Part shown: piece after piece, positions 27,135 to 44,943 of the stretch
Layout of the letters: every line of letters starts with the position of its first letter
How positions within the stretch are numbered: the first letter of the stretch is position 1
Assembly: GCA_030615855.1 (NCBI GenBank)
Contig: JAUWYL010000001.1
Span: forward strand, 139,008 to 203,007
Origin: a bacterium
Lineage (GTDB): Bacteria; UBP18; UBA7526
Length of the DNA: 64,000 bases
Reading direction: 5' to 3'
Notes under the pieces: model-generated
Told to the model about the DNA's origin: nothing
Databases searched by the model: none
What the model saw: the letters and a program-made list of their open reading frames with translations, nothing else
Program-made: the position numbers and the translations under genes

Positions 27135-27998
27135 ATGATGGGATTAGCCAAGGTCTATAGTAGTGCAGTACTGGGAATAGATGCCTATTCCGTAGAGGTG
27201 GAGGTAGATATTGCCAAAGGACTTCCCTCATTCAATACCGTGGGTCTCCCCGATGTGGCAGTGAAGGAGTCCAAAGACAGGGTGAAGGCAGCAATAAAGA
27301 ACTCAGACTTTAAATTCCCGACAAAGAGAATCACTGTCAACCTTGCTCCGGCGGATGTTAAGAAAGAAGGCTCTTTATTCGATCTACCCATTGCTTTGGG
27401 AATCTTAGCGGCCACTGGGCAGATTGAGAAGGCGGAATTCAAAAAATATGTTATCTTGGGAGAATTATCCCTGGATGGAGGGATACGCTCCATCCCTGGT
27501 GCCCTGCCCATTGCTCTGGCCGGTCAAAAAGAAGGGAGAGAGGGAATTATTCTTCCTCTGGATAATAGGGCAGAGGCAGCGGTAGTAAAGGGTCTAAATG
27601 TCTATCCTGTGGAGAACCTCTCCCAGACAGTAGATTTCTTAGCGGGAAAGACAGAGATTGAACCCTTCTCCTTAGATTTAGAAGGAGTCTTTGAGAGAGG
27701 GAGAGAATATAAGGTGGATTTTACAGATGTCAAGGGACAGGAACATGCCAAGCGGGCCCTGGAGGTGGCGGCAGCCGGAGGGCACAATGTAATCATGATC
27801 GGTCCTCCGGGCTCAGGGAAGACCATGCTTGCCCGGAGATTTCCTACCATTCTTCCTGATATGACTCTGGAAGAAGCCCTGGAGACAACAAAGATTCATT
27901 CCATCGCTGGCCTTGTGCCTCCTCAGACAGCACTCATCGCCACCCGCCCCTTCAGGAGCCCCCATCATACGGCATCAGATATTGCACTGTTACAATAG
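27135..27998 (+). pseudogene. comM: comM/yifB (Mg-chelatase-like competence ATPase), 5' portion truncated by element insertion
   Basis: N-terminus LAKVYSSAVLGIDAY.VEVEVD...GLPDVAVKESKDRV and the GPPGSGKT Walker A box are present. The ORF ends at ...RSPHHTASDIALLQ-stop, where intact ComM continues LIGGG...IPRPGE. Confidence 0.8.
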
Positions 27999-28002
27999 GG
28001 GG
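27994..28002. repeat. left junction copy of AATAGGGGG (candidate att core / flanking direct repeat)
   Basis: Identical 9-mer at 46477-46485. Splicing the flanks restores the comM reading frame D-I-A-L-I-G-G-G. Confidence 0.5.
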
Positions 28003-28055
28003 TAAGGTAGAAAAGGTAGAATATCGCATAGAAGCTACATTCTGATGGCGCTTAT
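27998..28055. repeat. island repeat unit copy 1 (GGGGTAAGGTAGAAAAGGTAGAATATCGCATAGAAGCTACATT), abutting the left junction
   Basis: Related copies at 34872-34966, 36246-36336 and 40932-41024. Confidence 0.6.
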
Positions 28056-28246
28056 TGTTACTATATGGTTAGTCAGCACAAAAACTTGACAAAATAGCAA
28101 AAGTGTATTATAATATAAATAACAAATAAAACTTGACAAAGTGTAAAAACCGTGATATGTTATAGGCCACGGGAGTAATTTCCAATAAAACAAGGATTGA
28201 AACTAGGAAAATCTACATTAATAATTATGGTAAGTAGAGGAAAAAC

Positions 28247-29104
28247 ATGAGGCGAGATATACTCTATTTTGGTGCCCCTGATAGTTTCACGCATATAGCT
28301 GCACTGAAAAGATTTGGTCCAAAGTATGACTATAAATCTTACTGGGCTATAGAAAAACTATTTGATGTTATTTTGGCAAATCCTACTAATATAATGGTAG
28401 TGCCTATTGAAAATAGTACTGGTGGAACAGTTCAACGTACTGCTGACGAATTAGTAAGTGATAAATTCGGAAATAGTGATTTGCGTATTCATGAACAACT
28501 GGAATCAAACATAGTTTTGAATTTAATAGGCCGCGAAAAGAATTTATCAAGTCTTAGAAAGATATACTCACATTCATATGCACTTAGATATTGTGAAGAC
28601 TGGTTAAAGGAGACTTTGCCAAACGCAGAAATGATTTTAGTAAATAGTACTTCGGAAGCGGCTATACGTGCAAAAAATAACCGAAAATCTGGTGCAATTA
28701 GTAGCACAAAAGCAGCAAAAACGTATAATTTGAAAATAATAAAAAGGAATATTAGCAAAAACAAAGCAGTTAATGTTACAAAGTTTTATGTTATAAAGAA
28801 AACAGGTAAGAATATTCTAAAACAAAGCAACAGGACTTCCGTTGCTTTTTCCTTGAAAGATAGAATTGGTGCCCTATGCGATGTCCTTGGGATATTGGCC
28901 AATAAAAAAATTAATTTAACTCGAATCATATCTTGTCTCAAATATGACAGTTCAAATAGGAATAAAAAATTAGATAAATATGCATTTCTTATAGAACTCG
29001 AAGGTAATATAGCCCAACAGAAAGTAAAAATAGCTCTTGATGAGTTACAAAGAGCTACCTTGGCTATGCATATTTTAGGTTCCTACCCCACAAGAAAACT
29101 TTAA
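28247..29104 (+). CDS. prephenate dehydratase-like protein (PDT domain + ACT domain), divergent
   Basis: YFGAPDSFTHIAALKRFG...VVPIENSTGGTV and IYSHSYALRYC are PDT-like. VAFSLKDRIGALCDVLGILANKKINLTRI is ACT-like. The TRF motif reads TKF and ESRP is not conserved. Very AT-rich. Confidence 0.55.
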   Translation: MRRDILYFGAPDSFTHIAALKRFGPKYDYKSYWAIEKLFDVILANPTNIMVVPIENSTGGTVQRTADELVSDKFGNSDLRIHEQLESNIVLNLIGREKNLSSLRKIYSHSYALRYCEDWLKETLPNAEMILVNSTSEAAIRAKNNRKSGAISSTKAAKTYNLKIIKRNISKNKAVNVTKFYVIKKTGKNILKQSNRTSVAFSLKDRIGALCDVLGILANKKINLTRIISCLKYDSSNRNKKLDKYAFLIELEGNIAQQKVKIALDELQRATLAMHILGSYPTRKL

Positions 29105-29325
29105 CTGAAAAACAATAATGTAGATGTGGTTACATCTTGACAGCTTTGGCAAGAATATAAATTTTCTTAAAGATATACCTCTCCAAAAATCAGAAGCCCC
29201 TACTCTTCAGAGGGTTCTTTTTATGCCAAAAATCTTTAATAATCCCCGCCAACTCAGGTGGGTTATTTTTTTGTTGAAATGAAATCTTTTTCAATTTACC
29301 GACGAAGAAGGCACAGAAAAAAGTC

Positions 29326-29354
29326 TTGACAAATCAAATATCGTAGTTTATACT
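29326..29354 (+). promoter_or_regulatory. sigma70-like promoter TTGACA-17-TATACT for the 204-aa orphan gene
   Basis: TTGACA at 29326-29331 and TATACT at 29349-29354, followed by SD AAGGAGG and ATG at 29376. Confidence 0.55.
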
Positions 29355-29375
29355 ATAATCAAAAGGAGGCAAAAG

Positions 29376-29990
29376 ATGGCTAAGTTGCCGTTTCCACAAT
29401 TTCTAAGTCGTTATGGAATCAAACTTCTCTTTACTGCTACTCCGGACGTGGTGCCGGGTACGATCATAGACAAGAGAAAGAAAGGGTTCTTCGGCATTGG
29501 AACCCTTAAACAAGTTCTGGGAGGAGGCCCGGCAAAGTGGGCGACCAAACTTCAACCGGGAAATTTGGTCTATGGCACAATAGAACGGGCTCTTAGTCTT
29601 AAAGGCAAAGCGAGCCTAAACGAGTTCGGTGTGGCAATCAGCGGTGGTCTCAGACGCGCACGGTCTGTTACTTTTGAAATCACGGGCGTCAAAGTTCGAA
29701 CATTCAAAACGCAGAGTATGATTACGATATCACCTGCACTCCACAAGCTTCGCAAGTCGAACAAGCAACTTTGGAAAATGGTAAATAATAATTGGATTGC
29801 GGATTATGTTTATTATGCCAGCGAAGCAACGGTGAAGTTCTTCGTTAACGGGGGAGTGAACCTCAAAGCGGATATCCAGAATCGTTTGAAAGTGTCGGGA
29901 GAGGCAGGGGTTCAATGGAAATCCAATCGCAGCTTCACGATAACAAATAACCAAGAAGTACCTTTCGGTTTTAGCGGCTGGAAAGTTTAA
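29376..29990 (+). CDS. hypothetical beta-rich protein, compositionally distinct (GC ~47%, CGN Arg codons)
   Basis: Own promoter and own terminator. Segments with alternating hydrophobic/polar residues (SVTFEITGVKVRTFK, ATVKFFVNGGVNLKAD) suggest amphipathic beta-hairpins. No family recognised. Confidence 0.4.
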   Translation: MAKLPFPQFLSRYGIKLLFTATPDVVPGTIIDKRKKGFFGIGTLKQVLGGGPAKWATKLQPGNLVYGTIERALSLKGKASLNEFGVAISGGLRRARSVTFEITGVKVRTFKTQSMITISPALHKLRKSNKQLWKMVNNNWIADYVYYASEATVKFFVNGGVNLKADIQNRLKVSGEAGVQWKSNRSFTITNNQEVPFGFSGWKV

Positions 29991-30100
29991 GGTTGGTTGC
30001 ACACCTTATCGTCATTCGTTTGTCGGTTACGGTTTTTGACGAACTACGTAACCCCTAAACGAAACGGGCGTCCTGACCGTATTGCGTATAACGAGCAATG

Positions 30101-30133
30101 CAGGAGCCTTTAATGGCTCCTCTTTTTTTGTTT
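30101..30133 (+). terminator. intrinsic terminator GGAGCC-TTTAAT-GGCTCC + T-run
   Basis: Perfect 6-bp stem followed by T9. Confidence 0.7.
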
Positions 30134-30237
30134 TAGAAGCAGGGCGAAGGAGAGATAAAAGGCTTGTTACACTTCCCTGAGTATGCTACAATGTAATTAA
30201 CATCACGAACGAAAATCCACCTGAGAACGGAGGACTA

Positions 30238-30918
30238 ATGACTCGAGTAATGAACAAGCAAAAAAAGATCGATGCATATAATTTTCCTTATACTTTTAAT
30301 CCTTATACTGGATGCCCCTATTGCTGTCACTACTGCTACACCATTAAATCTGCTCTCTGGAGTGCACGATTGAAAAACTGGGGAATAAAACCTAATATAG
30401 CAAAACCGAAACTTGGTGTAGTTCAGAAACTGCAGCGTGATTTACAGGACCTAAAGAATATACAAACCAGATATAAAGAAGTCCAGATAGGAAATTTCTT
30501 TGATCCCTATCCTCCAATAGAACCTAAATTAAAAATTACCAGACAATGTTTGGATGTATTTCGACAATATCCAGACTGGAAAGTCCATCTAGAAACCAAG
30601 TCTCCTCTCATCTTGAATGATATGGACATCATTAAGCAGATGCCGCGTTTTGAAGCGGAAATTACAATCACCACGCTCACACACGATAAGCAATTTGAGC
30701 CGAATGCTCCATCTACAAAAGAACGATTCAACTTAATCAAAGAGCTAAATAATAATGGAATATTTACAAGGGTTATGATTATGCCTATCCTGGAAGGATA
30801 TACCGATGTAAGGGCGATAATACAAAAAGCCACTAGATATGGAGCTAAATCATGGAAATCCAAAGAATTACATTACTTTACTATTAAAGATTTAAAAACT
30901 AGATATAATATTAAGTGA
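30238..30918 (+). CDS. small radical SAM protein, SplB/COG1533-like (DNA photolyase-like radical SAM family)
   Basis: N-terminal NPYTGCPYCCHYCY provides a CxxxCxxC cluster in the context typical of COG1533 proteins. At 226 aa it is short for the family. Confidence 0.5.
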   Translation: MTRVMNKQKKIDAYNFPYTFNPYTGCPYCCHYCYTIKSALWSARLKNWGIKPNIAKPKLGVVQKLQRDLQDLKNIQTRYKEVQIGNFFDPYPPIEPKLKITRQCLDVFRQYPDWKVHLETKSPLILNDMDIIKQMPRFEAEITITTLTHDKQFEPNAPSTKERFNLIKELNNNGIFTRVMIMPILEGYTDVRAIIQKATRYGAKSWKSKELHYFTIKDLKTRYNIK

Positions 30919-31017
30919 TAAGAGTGACGAAGAAAAAAAGCTAAAGGAAATTACACCTGAAATAAATAAAAAAAGCAGGAGCTATTTTGCCCCTGCTTTT
31001 TTATTGCCTGGATAAAT

Positions 31018-31326
31018 CTATTTGAAAATGATAGATACGATTTTAGAAAGCTTCTCTATATCTTTGGTTGATTTGTTCTTAAGAAGTTTGACTATTTCAT
31101 TTCTCGCTTGCTCTTTTTTATTCGTAAAAAGTTCACTGATATCAACCTTTAGACCTTTGGCTATTTTCTCAATATTCTTAAGAGAGGGATTACACTGCCC
31201 TCTTTCTATTAATCCAATATGAGTATAGTGTAAATTAGCCCTTTCCCCGAGTTCCTCCTGTGATAACTTTCGCTCCTTCCTTAAATCCCTTACCCTATTC
31301 CCGAAAATACGATATAGATTACTCAT
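31018..31326 (-). CDS. XRE-family HTH transcriptional regulator
   Basis: LSQEELGERANLHYTHIGLIERGQCNPSLKNIEKIAKGL. It is divergent from the lipoprotein operon. Confidence 0.7.
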   Translation of the reverse strand: MSNLYRIFGNRVRDLRKERKLSQEELGERANLHYTHIGLIERGQCNPSLKNIEKIAKGLKVDISELFTNKKEQARNEIVKLLKNKSTKDIEKLSKIVSIIFK

Positions 31327-31459
31327 TTTTCACCTTCCTTCAACATTATTTTAAAGGTAAAAGGCGAGAATAACCACAGAATAAATTATTTATTTTTCTT
31401 GATTTTAATGAAGATACATAGTATAATAAAAGTAATTGTATTATATGAGGAGGGACACA

Positions 31460-32998
31460 ATGAAAAAGACTATTCTTTTAATAACAGCGTTGATTCTAAT
31501 CTTCTCGTTATGCAGAACTGGCGACTCCTACGCAGTCAGCGATAAAAAATTGGCAAAACTTGCCAAGAAAGCAGGAGGGACAATTACTGAAGCACAAGAA
31601 TCTCTTACCCGATGGAAGACCGCTGACCTTATTGTACCTCCCGAAGCTGAGAAAATCCTGGAAAAAGCTCGTAAGGCCCATAAGGCGGGTAGCTACAAAG
31701 AGGCTCGTAAGCTGGCCGAAGAGTCTCTTAAAACTAGTAGCGATAAAGGAGCATGGAAACTTGCCCAGAAGACGAAAGAAATAATCACTCAGGCACAGGG
31801 CTACATTAACCTCTGGGAAAAGGAAGACCTTACTCCTCCACCCCAAGCCAAGGAAATTTTGAAGAAAGCCAAAGCAGCTTACCAGTCATACAATAATGAA
31901 GAGGCTTGCCAGCTCGCCAGCCAATCCCTTAAAATAACCACCGATGAAGGACTGAAAAAAGAGGCCCGGAAAGCAAGGGGGGCAATTACTGAAGCAGAAG
32001 CCAGTATCACCAGATGTGAATCTGCAGGATACACTGTTCCTCAAGCCAAAGAGATCCTGAGAAAAGCTCGCCAAGCAAATGAAGCGTGTAATTATAAAGA
32101 AGCACGTAAGTTAGCTAAAAACTCTCTCGAAGTAAGTAGCAAAAAAAAGATAGCCGGGCCCGCTGAAATTAAACCTAAAAAGGTAGAGAAAACAATTAAA
32201 AAGGTAGAAAAAAAGATCTCCAAGTGGGAATCTGAAATACAAATTCCTATTCCCCAAGCAAAAAAATTTATAGAAGAAGCTAACACGTTCTACCAGTCAG
32301 GTAATTATAAAGAGGCGCGCAATCTGGCCGGAAAAGCATATAATTCCTGGCAGCATGCGGTGATGGCAGAAAGGTATATCAAAGGAATGGAAGCCCACGC
32401 TACCAAATGGGAGTCTGCGGGCTACGATGTTCCCCTCACGAAGAAAATTCTTCGTGAGGCTCGCCAAGCACAAAAAGATGGAGAACAAGAAAAAGCCCAC
32501 CATTTAGGTGCAACAGCTGTCATTGTACTAAAACGAGAAGTAGCAGGAAGCTTTGAACCAAAAATAGAATTTCAGATTAATCCCCAGCATGGCTTGACCA
32601 AGTACAAAAAAATCGTTGTTTTAAAGATTGGTGATGCACCTCAAACCTTAGGTTCCGGGGAAATAGTGACAAACCTCGTATCCCATACTCTGGCAAAAAG
32701 AAAATATCAGATAGTGCAAAATAAAGAAGAGGCTGATGCCATCATCTCTGGATCCCTAACCCGGTATGAGGCCCAAGAATCTAGTTATCGCCTGCATTCA
32801 AAAGCCTTCATTTACAAATCCCGCGTAGAATCCTACTTCCTCGCCACCGTAGAGTTAACACTTAATATGAAAGATGCTAAAACGAACACTACTGTTTGGC
32901 AAGTTAAGGGTAAACAAGAGATGGCTTCTAAAGAAATAAAACCCGTAGCCCAATCAGTCATTAACGCCATCTTAGACCAGGTTCCGCAGAGTAAGTAA
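31460..32998 (+). CDS. lipoprotein with five tandem ~45-aa helical repeats and C-terminal LpoB/CsgG/TolB-N-like alpha/beta domain
   Basis: Signal peptide with lipobox FSLC. Repeats of the form ...TRWKTADLIVPPEAEKILEKARKAHKAGSYKEARKLAEESL. C-terminal YKKIVVLKIGDAPQ...IISGSLTRY. The longest ORF starts with TTG at 31436; SD plus ATG are at 31460. Confidence 0.5.
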   Translation: MKKTILLITALILIFSLCRTGDSYAVSDKKLAKLAKKAGGTITEAQESLTRWKTADLIVPPEAEKILEKARKAHKAGSYKEARKLAEESLKTSSDKGAWKLAQKTKEIITQAQGYINLWEKEDLTPPPQAKEILKKAKAAYQSYNNEEACQLASQSLKITTDEGLKKEARKARGAITEAEASITRCESAGYTVPQAKEILRKARQANEACNYKEARKLAKNSLEVSSKKKIAGPAEIKPKKVEKTIKKVEKKISKWESEIQIPIPQAKKFIEEANTFYQSGNYKEARNLAGKAYNSWQHAVMAERYIKGMEAHATKWESAGYDVPLTKKILREARQAQKDGEQEKAHHLGATAVIVLKREVAGSFEPKIEFQINPQHGLTKYKKIVVLKIGDAPQTLGSGEIVTNLVSHTLAKRKYQIVQNKEEADAIISGSLTRYEAQESSYRLHSKAFIYKSRVESYFLATVELTLNMKDAKTNTTVWQVKGKQEMASKEIKPVAQSVINAILDQVPQSK

Positions 32999-33014
32999 TA
33001 AGGAGGTAAGGGCA

Positions 33015-34034
33015 ATGAAAAAGGTTTCTTTTGTAATAGTAACGGGGCTAATGCTACTATTCTTGTTATATGGAACTAGCGAGTCCTGCACAGCTAACGC
33101 CCAGCAAGCATATCTAGAAATTACCGGAGCTCGGATGATGATTGCCAAGAAAGAATCTCAAGGGTATGCTGTTCCTGGAGCAAAGAAGATCCTGGAAAAA
33201 GCCCGACGGGCTTATCAAGACGGTAAATATAAAAAAACCCGAAAACTGGTAGAGAAAGCCCTTGACATACTACGCAAAGAAACAGCGCCTAAAAAATCTC
33301 TGGGCCGAAAGATAGCAGAAAAGACTATCACTGGCGATACTCACATAGGAATACTAACTCGAACACTTACTACCGGTTCTAAACATACTACGATAAAAGA
33401 CAAAATAGACGAGGTGAGAGTGAGGCATGAACCCTTAGTAGAAGTTCGCCAAGAAAAACCAGGGGTCAATCTGGCTGAATACCAAAAGATAGCTGTCTTA
33501 AAATTTAAGGACGCTCCTGGAACCCCGGGTTCGGGAAGCATAGTGGCTGATCTGGTAGCAAAAGAGTTAGCAGAAAGAAAGCATAATGTCGTTGGCCCAG
33601 AAGAGCTAGAGAGGGCAGCCAGGGAAGAGAAGGACAAAGAACCAGAAATAGGCAAAGAGGTCCCAGCCTTTACTATTAGCCGGTCCGATGTCGTTGTTTC
33701 GGGGAATTTACCGGATGAAATGGTTGATTCAATATTGGCCGAGATACAAGAAGACGCTAAGCGAAAAAAAGAACGGGTTGAGGACCTAAGCTACTCCCAG
33801 ATAAAGGAAGTGTTTGGCGCTGATGTTGTTATTACGGGAATTGTTTACAAGTATGCGTCTGCAGATACAGGAGGCGTAGTCAATGTAACGATTAAAATAA
33901 TTGACATTAAAGCTGACGACATTATCTGGGAGGGCAATGGAGTATACACTCCTTCGGAGAAAGATGCTTCTTCTATAACCCAGGCGGTTGTCAAGGCCAT
34001 TCTGGATGCAGTTTCACAGGAGGAGACTCAATAA
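33015..34034 (+). CDS. lipoprotein paralog (one helical repeat + LpoB/CsgG-like C-terminal domain)
   Basis: Signal peptide, ESQGYAVPGAKKILEKARRAYQDGKYKKTRKLVEKAL, and YQKIAVLKFKDAPGTPGSGSIVADLVA...ITGIVYKY. Confidence 0.5.
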   Translation: MKKVSFVIVTGLMLLFLLYGTSESCTANAQQAYLEITGARMMIAKKESQGYAVPGAKKILEKARRAYQDGKYKKTRKLVEKALDILRKETAPKKSLGRKIAEKTITGDTHIGILTRTLTTGSKHTTIKDKIDEVRVRHEPLVEVRQEKPGVNLAEYQKIAVLKFKDAPGTPGSGSIVADLVAKELAERKHNVVGPEELERAAREEKDKEPEIGKEVPAFTISRSDVVVSGNLPDEMVDSILAEIQEDAKRKKERVEDLSYSQIKEVFGADVVITGIVYKYASADTGGVVNVTIKIIDIKADDIIWEGNGVYTPSEKDASSITQAVVKAILDAVSQEETQ

Positions 34035-34146
34035 TAGAAACTCCCCTATAGTTTATCCCACCATCACGAACAAAGGTTCGGATAAAAAGAATTCAGGTCG
34101 CCTAAAAGAAAACGGCTAAATAAACTTTTGGAAGGAAGGAGGCAGT

Positions 34147-34863
34147 ATGAGAAAGATTCTTTTGTTAGTGGTTTGTTCGCTGGCTATCTTTTTAGTGGGA
34201 TGCCAAACTTTCGACCGCTGGTTAGCTCCTTCAAAACCAGTGGTGAAAATAGTAAAAATTACTAGTAATCCTAGTGGGGCTACAATTTATATAGACAAAA
34301 AGTACAACGGAACTATGAAATGTGGAGTTACCCCATTAACATTTTATCTAAAGTTCGTTGGGGAACTTCGTGGGGGAGAATTTACAAAACCTGGCGTTTG
34401 GCTCAAAGACCAAGGAGACCAAAAGAACTTTGGATGGCTCAAAAGAACACATCCTCAGGGGTATGAGTTTGAGGTTACGGTAAAAAAAATAAGATACAAA
34501 GAGGGGAAAATAAGAATAGACCTCGAACCACGCGACAAGACAGACTACCATATTGACCTAGAAGAAATAGAGACTATTTCTGTAGATGAGGTAGGTAAAC
34601 ATATAGGAGAGACGAAGATCGTAAGATGCCGGATAGTCTATACCGATAATGTAAGGGGGCGAGTATTTCTATTTACGGGCAAAGATTATAGGAAAGACTT
34701 TGCGGTAGAGATCTACTATCTGAGTAACTTTTCTTTCAACCCCGCTGCTTACTATCTGGGAAAGGAAATCGAGGTTCTGGGGCTTATACAAGGGGGCTGG
34801 CGCGAGGGCTTGCCCCCGTTTATCAGTGTTACCAGTCCCGACGAAATAAGAGTGATAGAGTAG
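34147..34863 (+). CDS. lipoprotein (lipobox LVGC), unknown function
   Basis: The MRKILLLVVCSLAIFLVGCQ signal is a lipoprotein signal. Confidence 0.45.
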   Translation: MRKILLLVVCSLAIFLVGCQTFDRWLAPSKPVVKIVKITSNPSGATIYIDKKYNGTMKCGVTPLTFYLKFVGELRGGEFTKPGVWLKDQGDQKNFGWLKRTHPQGYEFEVTVKKIRYKEGKIRIDLEPRDKTDYHIDLEEIETISVDEVGKHIGETKIVRCRIVYTDNVRGRVFLFTGKDYRKDFAVEIYYLSNFSFNPAAYYLGKEIEVLGLIQGGWREGLPPFISVTSPDEIRVIE

Positions 34864-34871
34864 AAAAGAAA

Positions 34872-34966
34872 AAGGGGGATTTTAGGAAAGAATAGAATAT
34901 CGGGTAGAAGTTATGTTATAATGTTCACCGCAGGAGTCTTAAAAGGCTCCTCTTTTTTTGTTTTAG
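34872..34966. repeat. island repeat unit copy 2 (includes terminator)
   Basis: aaagggggattttaggaaagaatagaatatcgggtagaagttatgttataatg...cgcaggagtcttaaaaggctcctcttttttt. Confidence 0.7.
34931..34962 (+). terminator. intrinsic terminator (AGGAGT-loop-GCTCCT + T-run)
   Basis: Hairpin plus T9. Identical module at 40989. Confidence 0.65.
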
Positions 34967-36245
34967 AAGAGGGGAAGAGATATCTAAAAACCGATTCAGA
35001 ATCAATCAAGGAGAAGCCAGGCCGTGCTCAATCTTTAAGTGCAAGTTTAATTCCTGCTCAACAATATCCATTTTGGAACCAATCCGAAAACCCCTCATGA
35101 ATTTATTCAGGAAATGTGGGTTGCCTCATTCCCAGAATAAAAATCTAAAGTTCATCAGCGGTTTTCTCTTCCAAAATGAATTGACCAGGAATTAAACCCC
35201 CTTCTCTTCAAGATGACCGAGCTGAGAATTAGAACCAAGATATCTTAGTTCATTCCAGTCCAGAGATGTAGGGATGCCTCATCTCTTCCCTTCCACTCAT
35301 AAGATAATACCCTTCTATCTTCCAGCGAGCCTGTTAGGGTCTTGGACCTAATTCTCACATTTTAAAGAGAAGGGTCATCATCTACCCCAGCGAGATAGAT
35401 GATGTTTCCACTCAAAGATTACTGGCTTCTCCTCCTGAATCTATTATGGATGACCCCCAAATTCTGCCAGGCAAGAAAGATTGTGTGGGTGGTGGTGGAC
35501 AGGCTCACTCCTCCTGGGGTGGTGGCAACCTTTCCCCTCGCATAGCATCGAAGCTGGGCGGGAAAGCCACGCCCTTCCCCTTTAGCGGGGAATTGGGCAG
35601 ATAATGCGCATTATCTGCCCTTGCTCACTATGGATGTTGGGTCGTCTTTTCGGGCTAAAACCTCAACATAAAATTTATTTTATGTTAACCTGCCACCACG
35701 CAAGAGGGATATGTCATTTGGCCCACCATCCCTTTCTGAGGGACGACCAATAAAGATGTTTCACCCTTAAGGTCGCCCTCATACTCCCACCCGTTATCCC
35801 ACCAACAGGTTCTCATACCATTAACCACTACAGGAGAGGGCATCAGGCTTCATAAAAGGAGCATCTATCCTTTGGGGAGGGGCTATCAGCAGGAAGCATA
35901 TATCTGGGGGAGCACCTATGGAATGGACAGAGAAGCTTCGAAGCAAAGCAGGAAGAAAGTAGCAGGCAGGAACGAACCGGGGGAGTCCGGGTAGATGTAT
36001 CCTCCCAGCGGCTCTTTGCTCCCGTAGCAGACTATTCCGCATGTCCGGAACAGGCAAGAAGAATCTCTGAATTTTATGGAAAAAGTCTGTAAGCCCCCGT
36101 CGCTATTGAACTTAGGGGAATTTCGGGTATTCCGTCTGAACGGAACAGCCTTTAAGAAGCAGGGATCTATCACCCCACACTTTAAAAATGCGATATAGGA
36201 CGGATACGGAGCTCCCAGGGGCATTCCAGGGAAGTATCTAATGGC
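34967..36245. other. ORF-free ~1.3 kb block, GC ~50%, rich in perfect palindromes (candidate cis-acting ori/oriT/att region or large ncRNA)
   Basis: No ORF longer than 102 aa on either strand. Loop-less palindromes GGGCAGATAATGCGCATTATCTGCCC (35595-35620) and AACATAAAATTTATTTTATGTT (35666-35687), plus a 9-bp-stem hairpin at 35376-35404. Bounded by repeat copies 2 and 3. Confidence 0.35.
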
Positions 36246-36336
36246 AAAAGGGTGAAAGGATAAAATATCGGGGGGAAGCTACATTATAATGCTTACCGCA
36301 GGAGTCATAAAGTGAATCCTGTCTTTTTGTTTTAAA
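36246..36336. repeat. island repeat unit copy 3 (diverged; includes terminator 36298-36334)
   Basis: aaagggtgaaaggataaaatatcggggggaagctacattataatg...cgcaggagtcataaagtgaatcctgtcttttt. Confidence 0.6.
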
Positions 36337-36424
36337 ACAGAGTAAAGGAGAGTAAAAAAATGCTTGCAATTTCCACCGAAATATGATAAGATTTTAAGTA
36401 GAAATTGAGGTAGAGAGAAAAATA

Positions 36425-37567
36425 ATGAAGAATGGCTACGTAAAGAAGGCAAGAACCAAAGCTCAGGTATGGATCAAGGAAAATCTTTCTGATTATTTAG
36501 ATGTAGTGTCCATCGGTCTACCAGAATATGATGACAGATACAATATTTGGAGAGTACCGTTAAATCTCGAAAATGGTAAGGATAGATTAGTCGGTGAAAT
36601 CAAATACGATAAATCTATTGAAAAAATGGTAGGTCGTACAAAAACCAAGATTATAACAGAAAGAATTGAAAAGTATCGTAACGAAAAGCCAAAAAAAGCG
36701 AAACAGAAAAGTGGATTATTCTATCCTGCTCCTATCCCAAACAAAGTTATACTAGGAGATGCAATTAAAGTTCTTGAGGATTTTCCACCCGATACAGCAC
36801 AACTTATGATTACATCCCCACCATATTTTAATGCCAAACCAGAATACTCTGAATATGTTGACTATCAAGAATATCTGGACTTTTTAAGGAAGGCTATTGC
36901 CAGAGTTCATAATGTCTTATCGGATGGGAGATTCTTGGTTATGAATGTCTCCCCCGTATTGATTAGGAGAACATCCCGTAAAACATCAAGTAAGCGCATA
37001 CCAATACCGTTTGATGTACATAAAGTAATAGAGAGTGTTGGTTTTGAGTTTATGGATGACATAATATGGGTTAAACCGGAAGGAGCTGGATGGAATTTGG
37101 GTAGAGGTAGAAGATTTAGAGCGGATCGGCAACCTTTGCAGTACAAGCCAGTTCCAGTAACGGAACATGTTTTGGTCTATCGGAAGAAAACTGATAAGCT
37201 GATTGACTGGAATATCCGAAGGCATTATGACCAAAAACTTGTAAAGAGATCAAAAATACGCGGAAAATATGAAGTTACAAATGTGTGGCACATTCATCCG
37301 GCATTTAGCAAACACCACCCAGCAGTATTCCCGAGAGAACTTGTTCGCAGGATAATAAGATACTATTCATTCAAGGATGATCTCGTTTTAGACCCATTTG
37401 CTGGTTCGGGTACAGTGGGTCATGTGGCTTATGAGATGGGCAGACGCTTTCTACTCATCGACAACGACCCCAAGTATTTCAAACTAATGAAGAGAGCGCT
37501 GAATGAGAGAATTAAAAATAAAATAAGAATCGATTACGAAATTCATGAAACATTTAAGGGGGTGTAA
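36425..37567 (+). CDS. DNA methyltransferase, beta-class, SPPY motif (probable N4-cytosine; N6-adenine not excluded)
   Basis: Motif IV ITSPPYFN precedes motif I DPFAGSGTVGHVA. S-P-P-Y/F is characteristic of m4C methyltransferases. Confidence 0.75.
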   Translation: MKNGYVKKARTKAQVWIKENLSDYLDVVSIGLPEYDDRYNIWRVPLNLENGKDRLVGEIKYDKSIEKMVGRTKTKIITERIEKYRNEKPKKAKQKSGLFYPAPIPNKVILGDAIKVLEDFPPDTAQLMITSPPYFNAKPEYSEYVDYQEYLDFLRKAIARVHNVLSDGRFLVMNVSPVLIRRTSRKTSSKRIPIPFDVHKVIESVGFEFMDDIIWVKPEGAGWNLGRGRRFRADRQPLQYKPVPVTEHVLVYRKKTDKLIDWNIRRHYDQKLVKRSKIRGKYEVTNVWHIHPAFSKHHPAVFPRELVRRIIRYYSFKDDLVLDPFAGSGTVGHVAYEMGRRFLLIDNDPKYFKLMKRALNERIKNKIRIDYEIHETFKGV

Positions 37568-38519
37568 GATAAATATTCAATTTGATGTAGATAAATATAG
37601 AGGGTGGCTGAGAAAGAACGTAACATTAAGTGATCCATTATCTCCTGAATCACTAAAGACTCTTGTTTATCATCTTCTTTTGGGTAAAAATTATCGTCTT
37701 CTGACGGAGAGAAACACCAAAGAAAAACTGTTTGCTACCTATATATGGTTGACAGATGTATACAACAAAGCAAAAGAAGAATACGGCAATGACTGGCGAG
37801 AAAAAATGCTTGGTGAACTTTTAGGTGAAGAAAGACCAAAAAAAGAGCAGAAGGATTTAACGTTTTGGTTGTTGGGACTTACACAAAAAGGAGCGGTAAA
37901 TCTTGGCATAGCCAAAAATGACTATCCTACGGTACTAAATGAGGTGATTGGATATTGTAGAAAACTATTCTCAGAGATGGGTGTTGATGGAAGGGAGGAT
38001 AATACTTGGCTCCTAATGATGGCTGGATCGGCCACTCTAAATATACGTGGTTCACAAAAAGCAAAGATAGGTAAAACCCTTGAGAAAGTTTTTTTGAGAG
38101 CTATGCTTACTATACTTGGTCTAGAAGAAAATGAAACCTTCTGGATGAATATTGGAAGAGACATAGAAGTTGAGAGAGAAGCTGATGCGGAAGTAAGAAC
38201 GAGGAGGGGGAGGATTAGAATCGAAGTTGGGTTGATTGCCCCAGGGAACCAAGAAGTAATAGAGGATAAAATCTCAAGAGTAGGAAGGAATGGAATTGTT
38301 ATATTTGATAAACTTGGTCCCCGTTCCAGAGTGTACGAAACAGCAGAACGCAATCATGTAAAATTAATCCAGATAAGAAACAATCAGCCTCTAATCGAGA
38401 TATATCGACATCTAAAACCATTAGTAGATATAGAACTAAGGAAGCCATCACAAACCGAAAAAGAACTCAAAAAATTAATAAACAAATTATCAGATGAAAC
38501 ACTACGACCAGCCACTTAA
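37545..38519 (+). CDS. hypothetical protein overlapping the MTase stop (candidate cognate restriction endonuclease or specificity partner)
   Basis: 23-nt overlap implies co-translation. Acidic cluster IGRDIEVEREADAEV...IRIEVGLI is a possible PD-(D/E)xK-like motif. No confident family assignment. Confidence 0.35.
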   Translation: MKHLRGCKINIQFDVDKYRGWLRKNVTLSDPLSPESLKTLVYHLLLGKNYRLLTERNTKEKLFATYIWLTDVYNKAKEEYGNDWREKMLGELLGEERPKKEQKDLTFWLLGLTQKGAVNLGIAKNDYPTVLNEVIGYCRKLFSEMGVDGREDNTWLLMMAGSATLNIRGSQKAKIGKTLEKVFLRAMLTILGLEENETFWMNIGRDIEVEREADAEVRTRRGRIRIEVGLIAPGNQEVIEDKISRVGRNGIVIFDKLGPRSRVYETAERNHVKLIQIRNNQPLIEIYRHLKPLVDIELRKPSQTEKELKKLINKLSDETLRPAT

Positions 38520-38541
38520 CGAAAAATTCTGTACGATTTGT

Positions 38542-38673
38542 ATGCTACCGCTTTTGATTATGCTGGTAGTTGTGGAACACCCTGATATTGGGCTTTTCAA
38601 GACTATCCTCTGGGTGGTCTTTTTGGAGGCGGTTTGTTATGCTGGGCTGAAGTGGGGGTATAGAAAAAACTAA
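38542..38673 (+). CDS. 43-aa hydrophobic peptide (below ORF-track threshold)
   Basis: ATG at 38542. Single TM segment. Stop overlaps the next start (TAATG). Confidence 0.25.
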   Translation: MLPLLIMLVVVEHPDIGLFKTILWVVFLEAVCYAGLKWGYRKN

Positions 38674-38852
38674 TGACCAAAACCTACCTTGAAAAAATAT
38701 TAGCCCACTTGCGGATATGCCCAAATTGTCGCAAGGGCGTTATGTGGTATGATGTTATAGGAAACATTGAGAAGACAATGTTCCTTTTAGGTCTACTTCT
38801 TGGCGCAATATTATTTGTGCTGTATTTGATTGGGGCTTTTCAGAATATTTAG
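38673..38852 (+). CDS. 59-aa zinc-ribbon plus TM peptide starting MTKTYLEKI
   Basis: CPNCRKG motif and a C-terminal TM. The N-terminus MTKTYLEKI parallels MTKTYFEEI of the ORF at 40636. Confidence 0.3.
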   Translation: MTKTYLEKILAHLRICPNCRKGVMWYDVIGNIEKTMFLLGLLLGAILFVLYLIGAFQNI

Positions 38853-38891
38853 GCCGTATAAGACATGTTAGGGTAAAAGAATAAATTAAAA

Positions 38892-40511
38892 ATGACAAAA
38901 CACAAGAAGAAACGTTCACAGAAAAAAAGAAAAAATCAATTTACCCCCATCAACAAACACAAAAGAGATGGTTCAAAGCTGGCCTCAAAATTGTCTAGTC
39001 TGAATCTTCAAATGATAGATTGGGAAAGAGATTTAATTCCTGAGCATCTTTGGATAGATTTATTAGCTGAGGAATATAAAGATGTTCTTTGGTTTAAAAT
39101 TTATAACGAATTTCTAGATAAGTTAGAAGAATGCTTGACAGAACAACCCAAAACTCCACTGTTTGGCTTTATTTCAGATTTTGCCATTCCTTCAGATGAA
39201 GAAAAAGAAAAATTTATAAATAACAATAAAGATTTAATCTTTAATGCTTTTTTTAAACCTATTGGTAAAATTTTATCTTTATATCCAGAAAGTCCAGCAA
39301 GTTGGTTGGTATTAAAAGAGTGGCTAGATAGCGAAAAGGTTGATTTTGAAGAAGAATTAAATAAACTTTCTCAATCTGTATCTCGCCTGATGAAAGCAAA
39401 AGATCTATATGCAGGGCACATACGCGCCTTGCCTTTAAATAGGCTATTTAAGCACAATAAAATCTTTTTAGCACAGGGAAAAATGGATGAATTAGCTGAG
39501 CTACTTCCAAAATATCCTGAAAAATGTACTAAAGAAGAAAAATATCATGTTCAATCATTTGCCAGAACAACAATAAATCAGAATTTTATGACAGAAGAAA
39601 GATATAAGGATATGGTTTGGTCAAAATATTTTTGGCGACACAATTATGATTTAGTACCATGCGCTCCCCTTAATGAATCTCTTGAAGATGGCGACATTGA
39701 AATGCATGATGAAAAAGTAAAAGAAATACAAAAAAAGACCTGGGAAAATTCTATCAAGTTAATGAAATATCTTGATAAAATTGCAATGCAATATAAATAC
39801 GATTTATACAATCCTATGATAGATCAGATAAAACTAGGACTATTCTCAAGGATTGTTAGATTATATATTTCATTTGTATCAAATCCATTTTTATGGACTA
39901 GGGATCTTTCCTGCATAATGCTAAGATGCTTAGGTGAAACGACTATTATATTTCACTATTTAATACTTCATGGAACAAATGAAGATTTTAAAAACTTCCA
40001 TGACTATGCGGTTGGGAAGGAAAAATTATTAATGTTGCACATCCAGGACACCTACCAAGAGTTTCTTTCTTTAGAAGGTAAAGACACAGAAAAGATTGCC
40101 AAAGATATTGGTGGTGATTTTCACGCAGAAATAACAGCTGTAGAATTAAAGGGCTGGATAAAAAAAGATATCCGCACAATGGCTGATAACACAGGATTAC
40201 AGAAAATTTATAAAATCATAGTTGATCCGTCTAATGCAGATATTCATGGATCATGGTCCAGTATTCGTAAGTCAAATTTAGTAATTTGCCGTCAGATTCT
40301 ACATAGATTCCATAGAATACCGAAATTTTATGAGCCTCCTGTTTATTTAGGAGCTTTGGTAGCAGCAGATTCAATTTATTTAACGGCAAAAGAAATAGCC
40401 GTTCAAAAGTTAGGATTTCCTGAACCTGATGAAACTTTATCAGAAATATCAGAGGTGAAAAAGGCAATTCAAGAAAGATCGAAAGAAATAATTAAGAAAT
40501 TTAAACCCTAA
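38892..40511 (+). CDS. hypothetical 539-aa protein, AT-rich, basic N-terminus
   Basis: No recognisable motif. It follows the MTase pair. Confidence 0.4.
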   Translation: MTKHKKKRSQKKRKNQFTPINKHKRDGSKLASKLSSLNLQMIDWERDLIPEHLWIDLLAEEYKDVLWFKIYNEFLDKLEECLTEQPKTPLFGFISDFAIPSDEEKEKFINNNKDLIFNAFFKPIGKILSLYPESPASWLVLKEWLDSEKVDFEEELNKLSQSVSRLMKAKDLYAGHIRALPLNRLFKHNKIFLAQGKMDELAELLPKYPEKCTKEEKYHVQSFARTTINQNFMTEERYKDMVWSKYFWRHNYDLVPCAPLNESLEDGDIEMHDEKVKEIQKKTWENSIKLMKYLDKIAMQYKYDLYNPMIDQIKLGLFSRIVRLYISFVSNPFLWTRDLSCIMLRCLGETTIIFHYLILHGTNEDFKNFHDYAVGKEKLLMLHIQDTYQEFLSLEGKDTEKIAKDIGGDFHAEITAVELKGWIKKDIRTMADNTGLQKIYKIIVDPSNADIHGSWSSIRKSNLVICRQILHRFHRIPKFYEPPVYLGALVAADSIYLTAKEIAVQKLGFPEPDETLSEISEVKKAIQERSKEIIKKFKP

Positions 40512-40635
40512 CAAGGCATTGCAGCGGACAAAAAACGCAGTTTTTTGCCGCTGAATTTCAATGTTATGTAGAGCCTTCAGAAGAAGCAGAAAATCTTGGT
40601 TTTCGTCGTGCTTGGAGATGGCACGGGGAGAAATA

Positions 40636-40953
40636 ATGACTAAAACCTACTTTGAAGAAATCTCAACTCAAACTATGGAGCATATCAAGAAGGCCATATT
40701 AGAATACCGACAAGGCAAATATAGCGACCCTATGGTACTGCCTAACGCTATTGCCGCAATTCTGGAGACAGAGATAGAGGATCCGGAATATCAGAAATTT
40801 GCGGTAGAAAATTATAGTCAAATTGTCGGAATTGTCATTAATAAAAATCCAAAGTATTTAGCCATTAAGAGTAATATTGAAAGAGATTTTTACTTTCAGG
40901 TCGATGACGAAATAGTAGAGGCTTATCAAAAAGGAGTAAGGTTAAAAGGATAG
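40636..40953 (+). CDS. hypothetical small protein (start at SD-ATG MTKTYFEE; longest ORF from 40561)
   Basis: SD GGGGAG precedes the ATG at 40636. The C-terminus reads into repeat copy 4. Confidence 0.35.
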   Translation: MTKTYFEEISTQTMEHIKKAILEYRQGKYSDPMVLPNAIAAILETEIEDPEYQKFAVENYSQIVGIVINKNPKYLAIKSNIERDFYFQVDDEIVEAYQKGVRLKG

Positions 40954-41024
40954 AATATCGGGTAGAAGTTATGTTATAGCGCTTCTCGCAGGAGTCTTAA
41001 AAGGCTCCTCTTTTTTTGTTTTGG
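40932..41024. repeat. island repeat unit copy 4, closest to the attL-adjacent copy (includes terminator 40989-41022)
   Basis: aaaaaggagtaaggttaaaaggatagaatatcgggtagaagttatgttatagcg...cgcaggagtcttaaaaggctcctcttttttt. Confidence 0.7.
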
Positions 41025-41049
41025 AGCAAAATAAAGAAGGATAAAAGAG

Positions 41050-41172
41050 GCGATAAAAAATATTTTTCGGGAGCAAACCAAAAAAGGACTTGACTTTTTC
41101 TATAAAATATGGTATATTATAAGTAGTAGTGGTTGAGGGGTTAACTTTAATTTTCAGGAGGGAATAGACGGG
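41050..41172 (+). repeat. duplicated promoter/leader block, copy A (promoter TTGACT 41090-41095, TATATT 41113-41118)
   Basis: ~85% identical to 41489-41612 and includes a diverged copy of the first codons of the MerR-like gene. Confidence 0.7.
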
Positions 41173-41222
41173 GGGCAACTTCTTTAAAATCTGATGGGGC
41201 TGGATGAGATGGGAGATGAGAA

Positions 41223-41438
41223 ATGAAGAATCATGATCCTTGCCTGCGTTCTCTCTTCCAGTGCTTCCTTGAAAAACTGGGGAATATGGAAAAGGAAGAT
41301 TTCTTTGCCGTTGTTCGGGAACATTACCCCGGCGAGGAGGCCTTTGAAGAATTCATTAGCTACTTCAAAAGCGAAGAGGGAATTGACAGGTTTACAACCA
41401 TTCTGTCCGAAGAAGCAAGAAAAATAAGAATTGACTGA
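41223..41438 (+). CDS. small acidic protein (71 aa), likely born from partial duplication
   Basis: Driven by promoter copy A. Confidence 0.3.
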   Translation: MKNHDPCLRSLFQCFLEKLGNMEKEDFFAVVREHYPGEEAFEEFISYFKSEEGIDRFTTILSEEARKIRID

Positions 41439-41488
41439 AAAGAAAGTAGGGATGGGGAGGAAACCGGCCAAGAAGAGGAGAAGGGGGG

Positions 41489-41612
41489 CAATAAAAAATA
41501 TTTTTCGGGAGCAAACCAAAAAAGTACTTGACTTTTTCAGTAAGATATGGTATAATATAAAGTAAGGTGGTAGAAAGACTAACTTTAATCTTTCAGGAGG
41601 GAACAGATGGAG
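41489..41612 (+). promoter_or_regulatory. duplicated promoter/leader block, copy B (TTGACT 41528-41533, TATAAT 41551-41556) driving the MerR-like gene
   Basis: Consensus -35/-10 with 17-nt spacer. SD CAGGAGGGAACAG followed by ATG at 41607. Confidence 0.6.
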
Positions 41613-42401
41613 AATAACTTCTTTAAGATCGGTGAAGCTGTCCGTATCCTTAAAAAGGAGTATGAAAACTTGACAGCGAGCATGCTGAGATACTGGGACC
41701 AGAAAGGAGTCGTCGAGGCTTCAGAGAAGACAGAAGGGGGGCAGAGAGTATATAGAGTCGAGGATCTGGACTTAATCAGATATGCCAGGGAATTGTCAAT
41801 ATCCGGTTGTTCGCTCGGTATAATCAGAAAGGCAATCAAGGAAACTAAACTCGTTGCGAAAACTCCCAAATACTCTGCCGAATCATTCAGAAAGGCCCTT
41901 ATCAAACTAATCCGGGCTCTGCGAGCATTTAATAAACTCGAAAGACGACTAGAGGTACACAATCAGCAATCTCTTGGGGAACGATTTGAACCGATATACG
42001 ACAGAGAGGCACTGGTAAAATTATCAGGGGATCCGGCCTCTGAAAAGATTATAGATAAAGCAGAGAAATATAACTTAATATTTCCTGGAAAATCGGGTAA
42101 AAAGAAGAGATACAGCCGGGCTGACGAAGTGATCTTAAGATATTTGTTACTGATGGGAATATCTGAAATCAAAAAATTCAAAAACCTTTATGATATTATT
42201 AAGTACTTAGAAGAAGAGGTGGGCGTTACTGTAACAGTTAAGCCAGGAAAGAACTTTGCATATTTTCTGCTCCCTGGAGTTCGTTCACAATCCTTTACAG
42301 AGCGCATTGCGACACCTCAAGATCGTCTATTTCAGTTGCTGCACGATCATTACGATTATATTTACGGAGCTGTGAAGATGCTGGCGGAGCCCCATGTCTA
42401 A
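41607..42401 (+). CDS. MerR-family HTH regulator with long C-terminal domain (possible excision/regulatory factor of the element)
   Basis: N-terminal FKIGEAVRIL...SMLRYWDQKGVV...GQRVYRVEDLDLIRYAREL is a MerR-type HTH. Confidence 0.55.
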   Translation: MENNFFKIGEAVRILKKEYENLTASMLRYWDQKGVVEASEKTEGGQRVYRVEDLDLIRYARELSISGCSLGIIRKAIKETKLVAKTPKYSAESFRKALIKLIRALRAFNKLERRLEVHNQQSLGERFEPIYDREALVKLSGDPASEKIIDKAEKYNLIFPGKSGKKKRYSRADEVILRYLLLMGISEIKKFKNLYDIIKYLEEEVGVTVTVKPGKNFAYFLLPGVRSQSFTERIATPQDRLFQLLHDHYDYIYGAVKMLAEPHV

Positions 42402-42647
42402 AATAAGGCAACAAAAATACCGTGATTATGGGAGTAAATTTTTTCCCAATAACTCAATATCAATACTTCAGCCACTTTCACTATTTTTCTTAAGAAAAGT
42501 GGAAGGCCCGGTGAATGATGTCTGACATCCGGATTACCTCCGTTAAGTGCGTACCGACTCCTGATGCCAAGGAGCGTTTCAAAAAAATCGTCGTGATGCT
42601 GTTTTCGAAAGCAAAATATCAACAGGGCCGGAAGGAGGTGAGGAAAA

Positions 42648-42857
42648 ATGAAGGAAAAAGAACTAACTGATAAGGAGATAAGGAAGATACTTGAATATAA
42701 CCGAAGATTACTTAAAGAAATGCGTAAGGAGTTTTTAAGAAATCAAGAGGAGTATAGAGAAATAGCGATTCTGTTTAGTGAAGAAACGGAAATGATAGAA
42801 GCAAAGAAAAAAACTATAGAATCAATCAAAAAACTTATAAGTATGCTTCCCAAATAG
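42648..42857 (+). CDS. small coiled-coil protein (69 aa)
   Basis: KE-rich heptad-like sequence. Weak support. Confidence 0.25.
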   Translation: MKEKELTDKEIRKILEYNRRLLKEMRKEFLRNQEEYREIAILFSEETEMIEAKKKTIESIKKLISMLPK

Positions 42858-42993
42858 ATAAAAAAATAGAGAGGAAACTAGAGAAACCGGGAAAGAAGGA
42901 GGAAAAAAGACACCGTCCGAAAGTTTAAGGACCATTAAAAAACAGGGAATCAAAACTGAAACTCCGATTCCTAACCTGTCAAGGAGGCGAAAT

Positions 42994-43980
42994 ATGGAGA
43001 GGTGTAAGATGAAACGTTTACCCAGTGTATCAGTCAAGCTCGCTAGTATAATCTGTATAGCAGGTTTCATCCTTCTGTGGTATGTTTTAATTGCGGCCCA
43101 CACTACAGGACTTGTTAAGAGTTGTTTTATCATCTATAGCATAGGTTTGATGGTGGTTACTTCTTATTGGAGCTATAGAATTGCAGAATGGGTCCGAATA
43201 AGGAATACGCAATCTGTAAAAAACATATTTGCTTTTTTCTTCGGCAAATTATTTAGCCCTCGCGCACTTAAAATATTCGAGAAGATAAGGACTGAGCACC
43301 AGGATACCATCGACAAAATCCGGGGTTCTCTATTCCGTGAAGCTTCTCCGGAAGACGAACTTGTTATATCCTTGATAAATCGTCTCTTATCTGCTCTTTT
43401 TGATTTACCCGATTTTAAATACGGACAGAAGAGTCTTTTTTCCTACTCTTTACTGGTAGCCGTTCACTCCTTAGAAGATTTTGAAACGAGAGTCTGGCGG
43501 ATGGAGACCCCGGAAGGAACGCGCGACGGCGTTAAAACAATTATGATGAGGGATAAATGGAAGTTAGGAGTTTGTATCTCTGCCCTGGCGAGTAACCTAG
43601 GCAGGGTTTACGAAGCGGAAGTATCTAGCCGTAAAGCATCTGCAGAAGTTTGGAACCCAGGGCGTGAAGAACTTTATACCTTCGCCCTTCGCCATAAGGA
43701 GTATGGTATTAAGTTGAAACCTACTCAAGAAAATTTCCACAAAATCCCCACCAATTATCTCCTTCATTATATTGTGAATAGCGATGTGGCTGAAGAATTG
43801 GGAGAAGAAGTGTTCTTTGAGGTGCTGGATTCCCTGTCTCCTGCTCCTAATTCCAAGAATCGTATCTTCCCTGTGGTGGAAGAAGGAAACAAGCTAACTG
43901 TTGAAGAAATCTCTAAATCCAAAGAGGCAGTGAGAGGAGGTCGGTATTGTCCACCAGAGAAGAAAACAAAAGAAAACTAA
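42994..43980 (+). CDS. membrane protein (two N-terminal TM helices) with a cytoplasmic domain
   Basis: Hydrophobic segments SIICIAGFILLWYVLIAA and IIYSIGLMVVTSYW. Confidence 0.4.
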   Translation: MERCKMKRLPSVSVKLASIICIAGFILLWYVLIAAHTTGLVKSCFIIYSIGLMVVTSYWSYRIAEWVRIRNTQSVKNIFAFFFGKLFSPRALKIFEKIRTEHQDTIDKIRGSLFREASPEDELVISLINRLLSALFDLPDFKYGQKSLFSYSLLVAVHSLEDFETRVWRMETPEGTRDGVKTIMMRDKWKLGVCISALASNLGRVYEAEVSSRKASAEVWNPGREELYTFALRHKEYGIKLKPTQENFHKIPTNYLLHYIVNSDVAEELGEEVFFEVLDSLSPAPNSKNRIFPVVEEGNKLTVEEISKSKEAVRGGRYCPPEKKTKEN

Positions 43981-44879
43981 TTCAGGCAGTTGCAAAACGT
44001 GAATCTTTAATGCGTGTGCTTTTTGTTCTAGACTGGTTTGGTTGGGCTACCATCAGACAAGCAGCAGGATACCTGCATCTGTCAACGCGACGGGTGAACT
44101 GCATCTTAGACGAATTATTTGAATCCAGGATGGTGAAGTACAAACGGACACACGCTCTCTTCGGAAAAGGACGACGATATTGGTATCTGCTCCGTAAAGG
44201 AATATCTGTCCTTAGGGTTAGAGACCCTCATGTTTTTTCCTCGCCAATCCGCAGGGGCCAAATCCCGGATACCCCCTTTAGCCATCATCATGGTGTTGTA
44301 GATGCCATTATTGAATTACGGGAAAAAGGATTCAAATGCACTTCTTGCCGTCACTCTTTATGGCCTAGTTTAATGCAGCAATATGGCAAGCAATACCATA
44401 ATATACCCGATTTCTGGGTAAAGAAGGAAAAAGAAACCTTTATAGCCGCCGAGGTGGAGCGAACGGTCCGTGGTAAGAGGTATTATGCCCCTAAAATGAA
44501 TAACCAGCAAAAAAGATATTTTGAACGGTTTATCCCCACTCTCTACATTCCCATGACTAAAAAAGTAGAAAAAAATCTTCATAAGATAATCAAACAGATA
44601 AAACAAACTGGTGAATACACTATGAAGAAGGGAAAGCCGGATCACCTGAAGACTATGGCAGAATTTGACTATAGATACCGGAGTGGGGAAAAAGTAGGCG
44701 CCGTGGATGGCGGAATCGGATTTATGTTCAGCAATACAGAAATGACTAAATTTACTGCCCCGATTGCTTCAACCGGTGAGTGGATCGAGAGTCCTTTTAC
44801 AGAGTTGGCGGATAAGGCTAAAAAGATATCTGAGACGCTCTTCAAGAGAGAGGAGGGCGAAGTTCTGAAAAGATTTTGA
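43947..44879 (+). CDS. winged-helix protein, possibly replication-relaxation-like
   Basis: N-terminal wHTH-like LMRVLFVLDWFGWATIRQAAGYLHLSTRRVNCILDEL. Family assignment is tentative. Confidence 0.35.
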   Translation: MSTREENKRKLIQAVAKRESLMRVLFVLDWFGWATIRQAAGYLHLSTRRVNCILDELFESRMVKYKRTHALFGKGRRYWYLLRKGISVLRVRDPHVFSSPIRRGQIPDTPFSHHHGVVDAIIELREKGFKCTSCRHSLWPSLMQQYGKQYHNIPDFWVKKEKETFIAAEVERTVRGKRYYAPKMNNQQKRYFERFIPTLYIPMTKKVEKNLHKIIKQIKQTGEYTMKKGKPDHLKTMAEFDYRYRSGEKVGAVDGGIGFMFSNTEMTKFTAPIASTGEWIESPFTELADKAKKISETLFKREEGEVLKRF

Positions 44880-44943
44880 AAAGTCCTTGTCTTTTTCGTA
44901 GAGAGGGTTTATAATTAATAAAACTAGAAGTCAGGAGGTCAAA

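Follow-up and report, generated by a model that had tools for sequence, protein, structure and literature searches.

A fundamental question raised by this locus is what an XRE-type regulator gene and three divergently transcribed genes for envelope proteins do together in an uncultivated deep-sea bacterium. The window, meaning the whole stretch of 64,000 nucleotides that was analysed, had first been interpreted from its letters, and this sequence-only reading described three secreted lipoproteins beside a repressor, acting in superinfection exclusion or receptor masking like the phage proteins Llp and Cor. Whether these products are lipoproteins, whether they belong to a phage and what they would do in the envelope can be addressed in turn from the following features.

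30969 to 31002, minus strand: terminator-like hairpin from a terminator scan, 3' of the XRE gene
31018 to 31326, minus strand: XRE/HTH_3 regulator, 102 aa, divergent from the operon (Pfam HTH_3, 4e-15)
31327 to 31459, no strand given: divergent regulatory region with promoter-like site, imperfect palindrome and ribosome-binding site (RBS)
31460 to 32998, plus strand: gene A, 512 aa, with signal peptide, five three-helix-bundle repeats and a C-terminal PelC/LptE-like domain
31541 to 32545, plus strand: the five DUF4398-like three-helix-bundle repeats of A (R1 31541-31744, R2 31745-31945, R3 31946-32158, R4 32165-32353, R5 32354-32545)
32546 to 32995, plus strand: C-terminal alpha/beta domain of A, residues 363-512, of the PelC/CsgG/TraT/LptE/LpoB/GNA1162 fold
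33015 to 34034, plus strand: gene B, 339 aa, a paralog of A, with signal peptide (ANA/QQ, the slash marking the cleavage site), one three-helix repeat (33093-33284), a linker and the C-domain (33465-34031)
34147 to 34863, plus strand: gene C, 238 aa, a lipoprotein with lipobox, PEGA domain and OB-fold-like domain
34192 to 34203, plus strand: C lipobox, L-V-G-C
34249 to 34347, plus strand: C PEGA domain (Pfam PEGA, 7e-6)
34576 to 34860, plus strand: C-terminal OB-fold-like domain of C, related to the OB domains of a membrane-anchored OB-SNase nuclease of a neighbouring lineage
34932 to 34951, plus strand: terminator hairpin and T-run 3' of gene C, within a repeat element of ~70 nt

Genes A, B and C form an operon in which each gene is preceded by a strong RBS, with the promoter-like site and terminator assigned from sequence. 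The promoter-like site (TTGATT-17-TATAAT, 31399-31427, plus strand) has its -10 box overlapped by the imperfect palindrome at 31422-31445, the gene A RBS (GAGGAGGG) lies 5' of the ATG at 31460, and gene B, with the RBS AAGGAGGT, begins only 16 nt past the gene A stop codon. On the left, DNA homology with a related cassette at locus L006 ends at 30964 (blastn), marked by the hairpin 3' of the XRE gene. The 1.5-kb gap 3' of gene C yielded nothing to Rfam (at the gathering threshold for the whole window and in E-value mode for 34800-36500), a tRNA search or RNA folding.

What kind of proteins does the operon encode? The five tandem repeats first noticed in A are real: they align without gaps at 21-55% identity with Smith-Waterman z-scores of 4-21, and none of 300 shuffles scores as high. 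Their length had been put at ~45 aa, a figure that gives way to 64-71 aa in the AF2 model (pLDDT 85.5), where each unit is a three-helix bundle. The alpha/beta domain that follows carries the motif YKKIVVLKIGD...ISGSLTRY, as originally described, and consists of two helices and an antiparallel sheet. Against Pfam DUF4136 (PF13590), A scores 34.1 bits over residues 402-510, above the cut-off of 32.8, and an A-like protein of the type found at L006 and L007 (P0014) scores 44.2 bits. Gene B indeed encodes a shorter paralog with one repeat and the same C-domain (BLASTP of A vs B, 2e-17); its best Pfam match is GNA1162-like at 25.3 bits, below the 25.9 cut-off, and it also stays under the DUF4136 threshold. 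A structural search returned PelC as the best match along with many LptE, PqiC, LpoB, Cj1090c and HpaA-type envelope lipoproteins, and the C-domains of A and B share the LptE/PelC/TraT/CsgG/LpoB fold. Mature A, after removal of the signal peptide (residues 1-25), has a net charge of +29, and an acidic insertion brings the B C-domain to -13. No functional study of DUF4398 or DUF4136 was found in the literature; a DUF4136 named in one defence paper is the connector domain of the UG5 reverse transcriptase and is unrelated.

Lipidation was judged by pattern alone, the criterion being [LVI][ASTVI][GAS]C where the signal peptide ends (a PROSITE PS00013-type pattern), and C is the only one of the three products that passes. 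In A the sequence is F-S-L-C, with Leu at -1, and this non-canonical Ser-Leu-Cys is invariant across the A family; in B it is S-E-S-C, and the Cys is missing in most B homologs. Both proteins have a conserved SPase-I-like site (S-x-A/V or A-N-A/Q), which together with the lack of a canonical lipobox leaves the description of three lipoproteins unsupported, so that it holds for C, fails for B and meets in A a cysteine outside the pattern. Other lipoproteins encoded in relatives' loci have canonical lipoboxes. No hydrophobic segment occurs past residue 30, the maximum 19-residue Kyte-Doolittle mean being 0.88 in A and 1.06 in B, and A and B, which are paralogs, are predicted to be Sec-exported envelope proteins. 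As for C, BLASTP links it at 2e-6 to the window protein at 20111-21559 and at about 1e-8 to the L003 and L007 nucleases. A search of 5.8 billion proteins returned no homolog besides C itself, its sequence has no match in the PDB and its single-sequence structure prediction reaches a pLDDT of 36.

Is the regulator a phage repressor? The XRE protein is most closely related to controller (C) proteins of restriction-modification systems, with 3.3e-20 to the PADLOC Control_protein model and 2.3e-10 and 3.7e-9 to C.BclI and C.AhdI in the PDB, and it also matches PHROG repressor families. The likeness to C.BclI and C.AhdI lies in the HTH sequence, whereas C proteins sit immediately upstream of the endonuclease gene that they control and this gene does not: the restriction-modification genes at 36425-38519 are 5 kb away, beyond the A-B-C operon. 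At L006 an ortholog with 85% amino acid identity is likewise divergent from an A-like/B pair, and no restriction-modification system was found at that locus. The two regulatory regions are 94% identical in nucleotides, with a nearly invariant promoter, whereas the A proteins are only ~47% identical. The XRE protein would keep the cassette under control.

The surroundings of the operon bear directly on the phage question, and its carrier is delimited by the following features.

27984 to 46471, no strand given: integrated mobilizable island of 18.5 kb that carries the operon, with mapped att sites, inserted in comM/yifB
27977 to 27983: attL core, AGATATT, a junction sequence
46465 to 46471: attR core, a junction sequence
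42994 to 43980: MobH-like relaxase gene
44944 to 46548: large serine recombinase gene

The island splits yifB into an N-terminal half (27135-27998) and a C-terminal half (46511-47164), and GC content is low across 28-46 kb. The closest genome, a MAG 87-96% identical (L008), has an intact 513-aa yifB with an empty attB and also lacks the cassette at the alternative, chromosomal site. Defence-type neighbours on the island are a gasdermin-like bGSDM gene (PADLOC, 5.7e-10), a DitA-like gene (PADLOC, 1e-31) and a CfrBI-type (type II) restriction-modification pair. The operon is cargo of this island and is not phage-borne. A prophage reading, in which superinfection-exclusion or receptor-masking lipoproteins of the Llp/Cor kind are expressed under a phage repressor, draws on the divergent XRE gene, its PHROG repressor matches and the mobile context, but is disfavoured as highly improbable: the best XRE matches are the controller proteins, no phage structural, lysis or replication genes were found on the island, and A, B and C match no PHROG model and have no IMG/VR relative, one distant LptE-like match to a viral structure aside. 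Nor was any likeness to Llp/Cor found, A and B being set apart by description (339-512 aa, not clearly lipidated, no prophage). None of the three matches a PADLOC model either.

Where else does the A-B pair occur? It is very rare, with about 15 relatives among billions of proteins, too few for covariation or wide context statistics, and alignment scans with A and B returned no relatives in genome, viral (IMG/VR) or metagenome contig collections. Three long fn3/Ig-repeat proteins retrieved by phmmer (P0015, P0019, P0021) were discarded once a Pfam scan showed their repeat matches to be spurious, and the contexts of P0006 and P0016 are too short to inform. A cold seep in the South China Sea was the sampling site of one related contig. 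In one of six contexts (L002), known from a single contig that breaks off within B, the pair follows a transfer cluster encoding type IV pilus, TraF, TraH and TraG_N proteins at short distance and in the same orientation. F plasmids have the order traG-traS-traT, and the position of the pair after TraG_N resembles this. Could the pair instead be a structural or accessory part of conjugative transfer, in the outer-membrane core or as a pilus-associated periplasmic protein? Its placement at L002 and the MobH-like relaxase on the window island would suit such a component, yet no tra genes occur in the remaining five contexts, mating-pair-formation genes were found neither on the window island nor in the four chromosomal loci with the pair, and tblastn of A against 72,556 plasmids gave no match, which makes this explanation a very remote one.

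Four of the six contexts (L003, L005, L006 and L007) are chromosomal, and there the pair occupies a variable slot flanked by a HAD phosphatase gene and an OB-SNase gene. The latter, which encodes a membrane-anchored OB-fold nuclease, has the same orientation as the pair and follows it directly. These contexts beside a nuclease gene fit a nuclease- or matrix-related role equally well. The A-B(-C) products could tether, shield or regulate the OB-fold/SNase nuclease, or bind anionic matrix polymers or DNA, whether periplasmic or outside the cell, through the polybasic helical array of A and the OB domain of C. The homology of C's C-terminal domain to the OB-SNase OB domains and the charge of A speak for this, as do a fold class that includes anionic-glycan binders and a nuclease that is hypervariable like A and B (57-94% amino acid identity vs 85-91% for its HAD neighbour). 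However, the window and L008 retain the nuclease with no adjoining cassette, the window cassette being 11 kb away on the island, and no such nuclease was found near the pair at L002 or L004. Adjacency may moreover merely reflect an insertion hotspot, since the same slot also holds a ParE toxin gene, an XRE gene and an attP-like island remnant. On this balance we regard a nuclease partnership as unlikely.

How fast the cassette changes is the remaining line of evidence. Between the window and L003 or L005, flanking proteins are 85-94% identical, A only 56-58% and B 30-32%; gene A is mosaic at the DNA level, and the A-B cassette is far more diverged than its flanks. Strong homology to a housekeeping LpoB in a conserved chromosomal context, the finding that would have spoken against the sequence-only reading, did not emerge: the chromosomal copies of relatives lie in a variable hotspot, and the closest genome has none. 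An accessory, mosaic and mobile cassette that outpaces its flanks is most likely a conflict-type barrier and not a housekeeping system, and we therefore tentatively propose that the A-B-C operon may be an accessory envelope barrier of this type, possibly an exclusion-like one. The grounds that make an exclusion-type role plausible are the TraT-like core fold, the post-TraG position in one tra cluster and the rapid mosaic evolution. Against exclusion, A and B lack the features by which TraT, PelC and CsgG act at the outer membrane, and the defence neighbours on the island offer guilt by association only.

The same structural matches could also describe cargo with no part in conflict, neutral or adaptive, that serves adhesion, biofilm matrix or outer-membrane stability or aids polysaccharide, LPS or peptidoglycan machinery. 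PelC as best match, the LptE, PqiC, LpoB, Cj1090c and HpaA-type matches and the envelope proteins that accompany the pair in other cassettes, namely a 3D-domain lipoprotein and further lipoproteins, would all be at home there. Such a role is nevertheless doubtful: no pel, lpt, curli (csg) or PBP genes were found in the island or its flanks, the closest genome does without the cassette, and structural helpers seldom show divergence and mosaicism so far beyond those of their flanks.

How might a conflict-type barrier work? The C-domains of A and B would dock or oligomerise at the outer membrane or peptidoglycan, a proposal drawn from characterised members of the fold, which are ring-forming or docking modules, several of them binding anionic glycans. 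The opposite charges of mature A and the B C-domain suggest that the two may associate, so that a hetero-assembly is conceivable. In A, the highly basic array of helical bundles could be a rigid spacer or an arm that binds polyanions, lipoprotein C could join A/B as a partner tethered to the membrane, and the assembled barrier would exclude incoming conjugative or foreign DNA or mask surface structures. A more specific version is distinctly unlikely as it stands: non-lipidated TraT/PelC-fold proteins on rigid stalks of 1-5 three-helix bundles, together with C, would assemble beneath the outer membrane and block or capture incoming DNA, with the XRE protein timing expression after the element's entry into a new host, as a module of integrative mobile elements not previously described. 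The incoming DNA could here arrive by conjugation, transformation or phage.

If the proposed barrier role is true, the operon, borne by a comM-targeting defence island of a deep-sea uncultivated lineage, would be analogous to TraT, with the same core fold and a different strategy of membrane association. It would widen the repertoire of exclusion and defence at the envelope, which is far less charted than cytoplasmic defence. Function aside, the locus offers a clear case of an island with a serine recombinase and mapped att sites, and of an envelope cassette, mosaic and quick to evolve, that passes between mobile elements and a hotspot in the chromosome. Its practical significance is modest because the evidence is purely computational, the family tiny and the organism uncultivated.

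How do A and B compare with known systems? The identities PelC, TraT, LpoB, CsgG and Llp/Cor were each rejected for them. Characterised fold relatives act in the outer membrane or on its periplasmic side, CsgG as a 9-mer, LptE as a plug and LpoB as an adaptor. Compared with CsgG, the C-domain is only about 150 aa, its model has no extra transmembrane hairpins and there are no csg genes. LpoB is the outer-membrane-anchored activator of PBP1B (UB2H domain), a core gene product with a disordered spacer and a canonical lipobox anchor, whereas here an array of rigid helical units would form the spacer, and the gene belongs to the accessory, mobile fraction and is not core-syntenic. The A/B C-domain has the fold of PelC (PDB 5T0Z, 5T10, 9H80), the outer-membrane lipoprotein of the Pel exopolysaccharide exporter. 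PelC consists of one domain of ~150 aa, is lipidated at its N terminus and assembles on PelB into a periplasmic ring of 12 subunits (PMC12141448), whereas A and B have this domain at the C-terminal end, preceded by 1-5 helical bundles, with no canonical lipobox and no pel genes. TraT, the surface exclusion protein of IncF plasmids (PDB 9E2V), uses a lipobox, two transmembrane helices and a long beta-hairpin to build a decameric membrane barrel (PMC11733297, PMC12658005), and its core fold is shared with binders of anionic oligosaccharides (PMC12658005). Neither A nor B has a lipobox, transmembrane helices or a hairpin, and a Pfam scan of both (E <= 0.1) gave no match to TraT families. DUF4136 (BT2437, PDB 4F54), GNA1162-like/DUF799 (4HRV) and CsgG N-domain proteins are mostly small single-domain lipoproteins whose function is unknown or tied to secretion, and DUF4398 (PF14346; PA2901, PDB 4FM3) and the SoxAX-binding protein SAXB are single-copy, small and periplasmic, whereas here 1-5 tandem copies are fused to a second domain. 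By sequence comparison, the fusion of tandem DUF4398-like bundles to a DUF4136-type domain, in paired paralogs, appears only in this group among the retrieved sequences, and it makes a new architecture out of two domains of unknown function.

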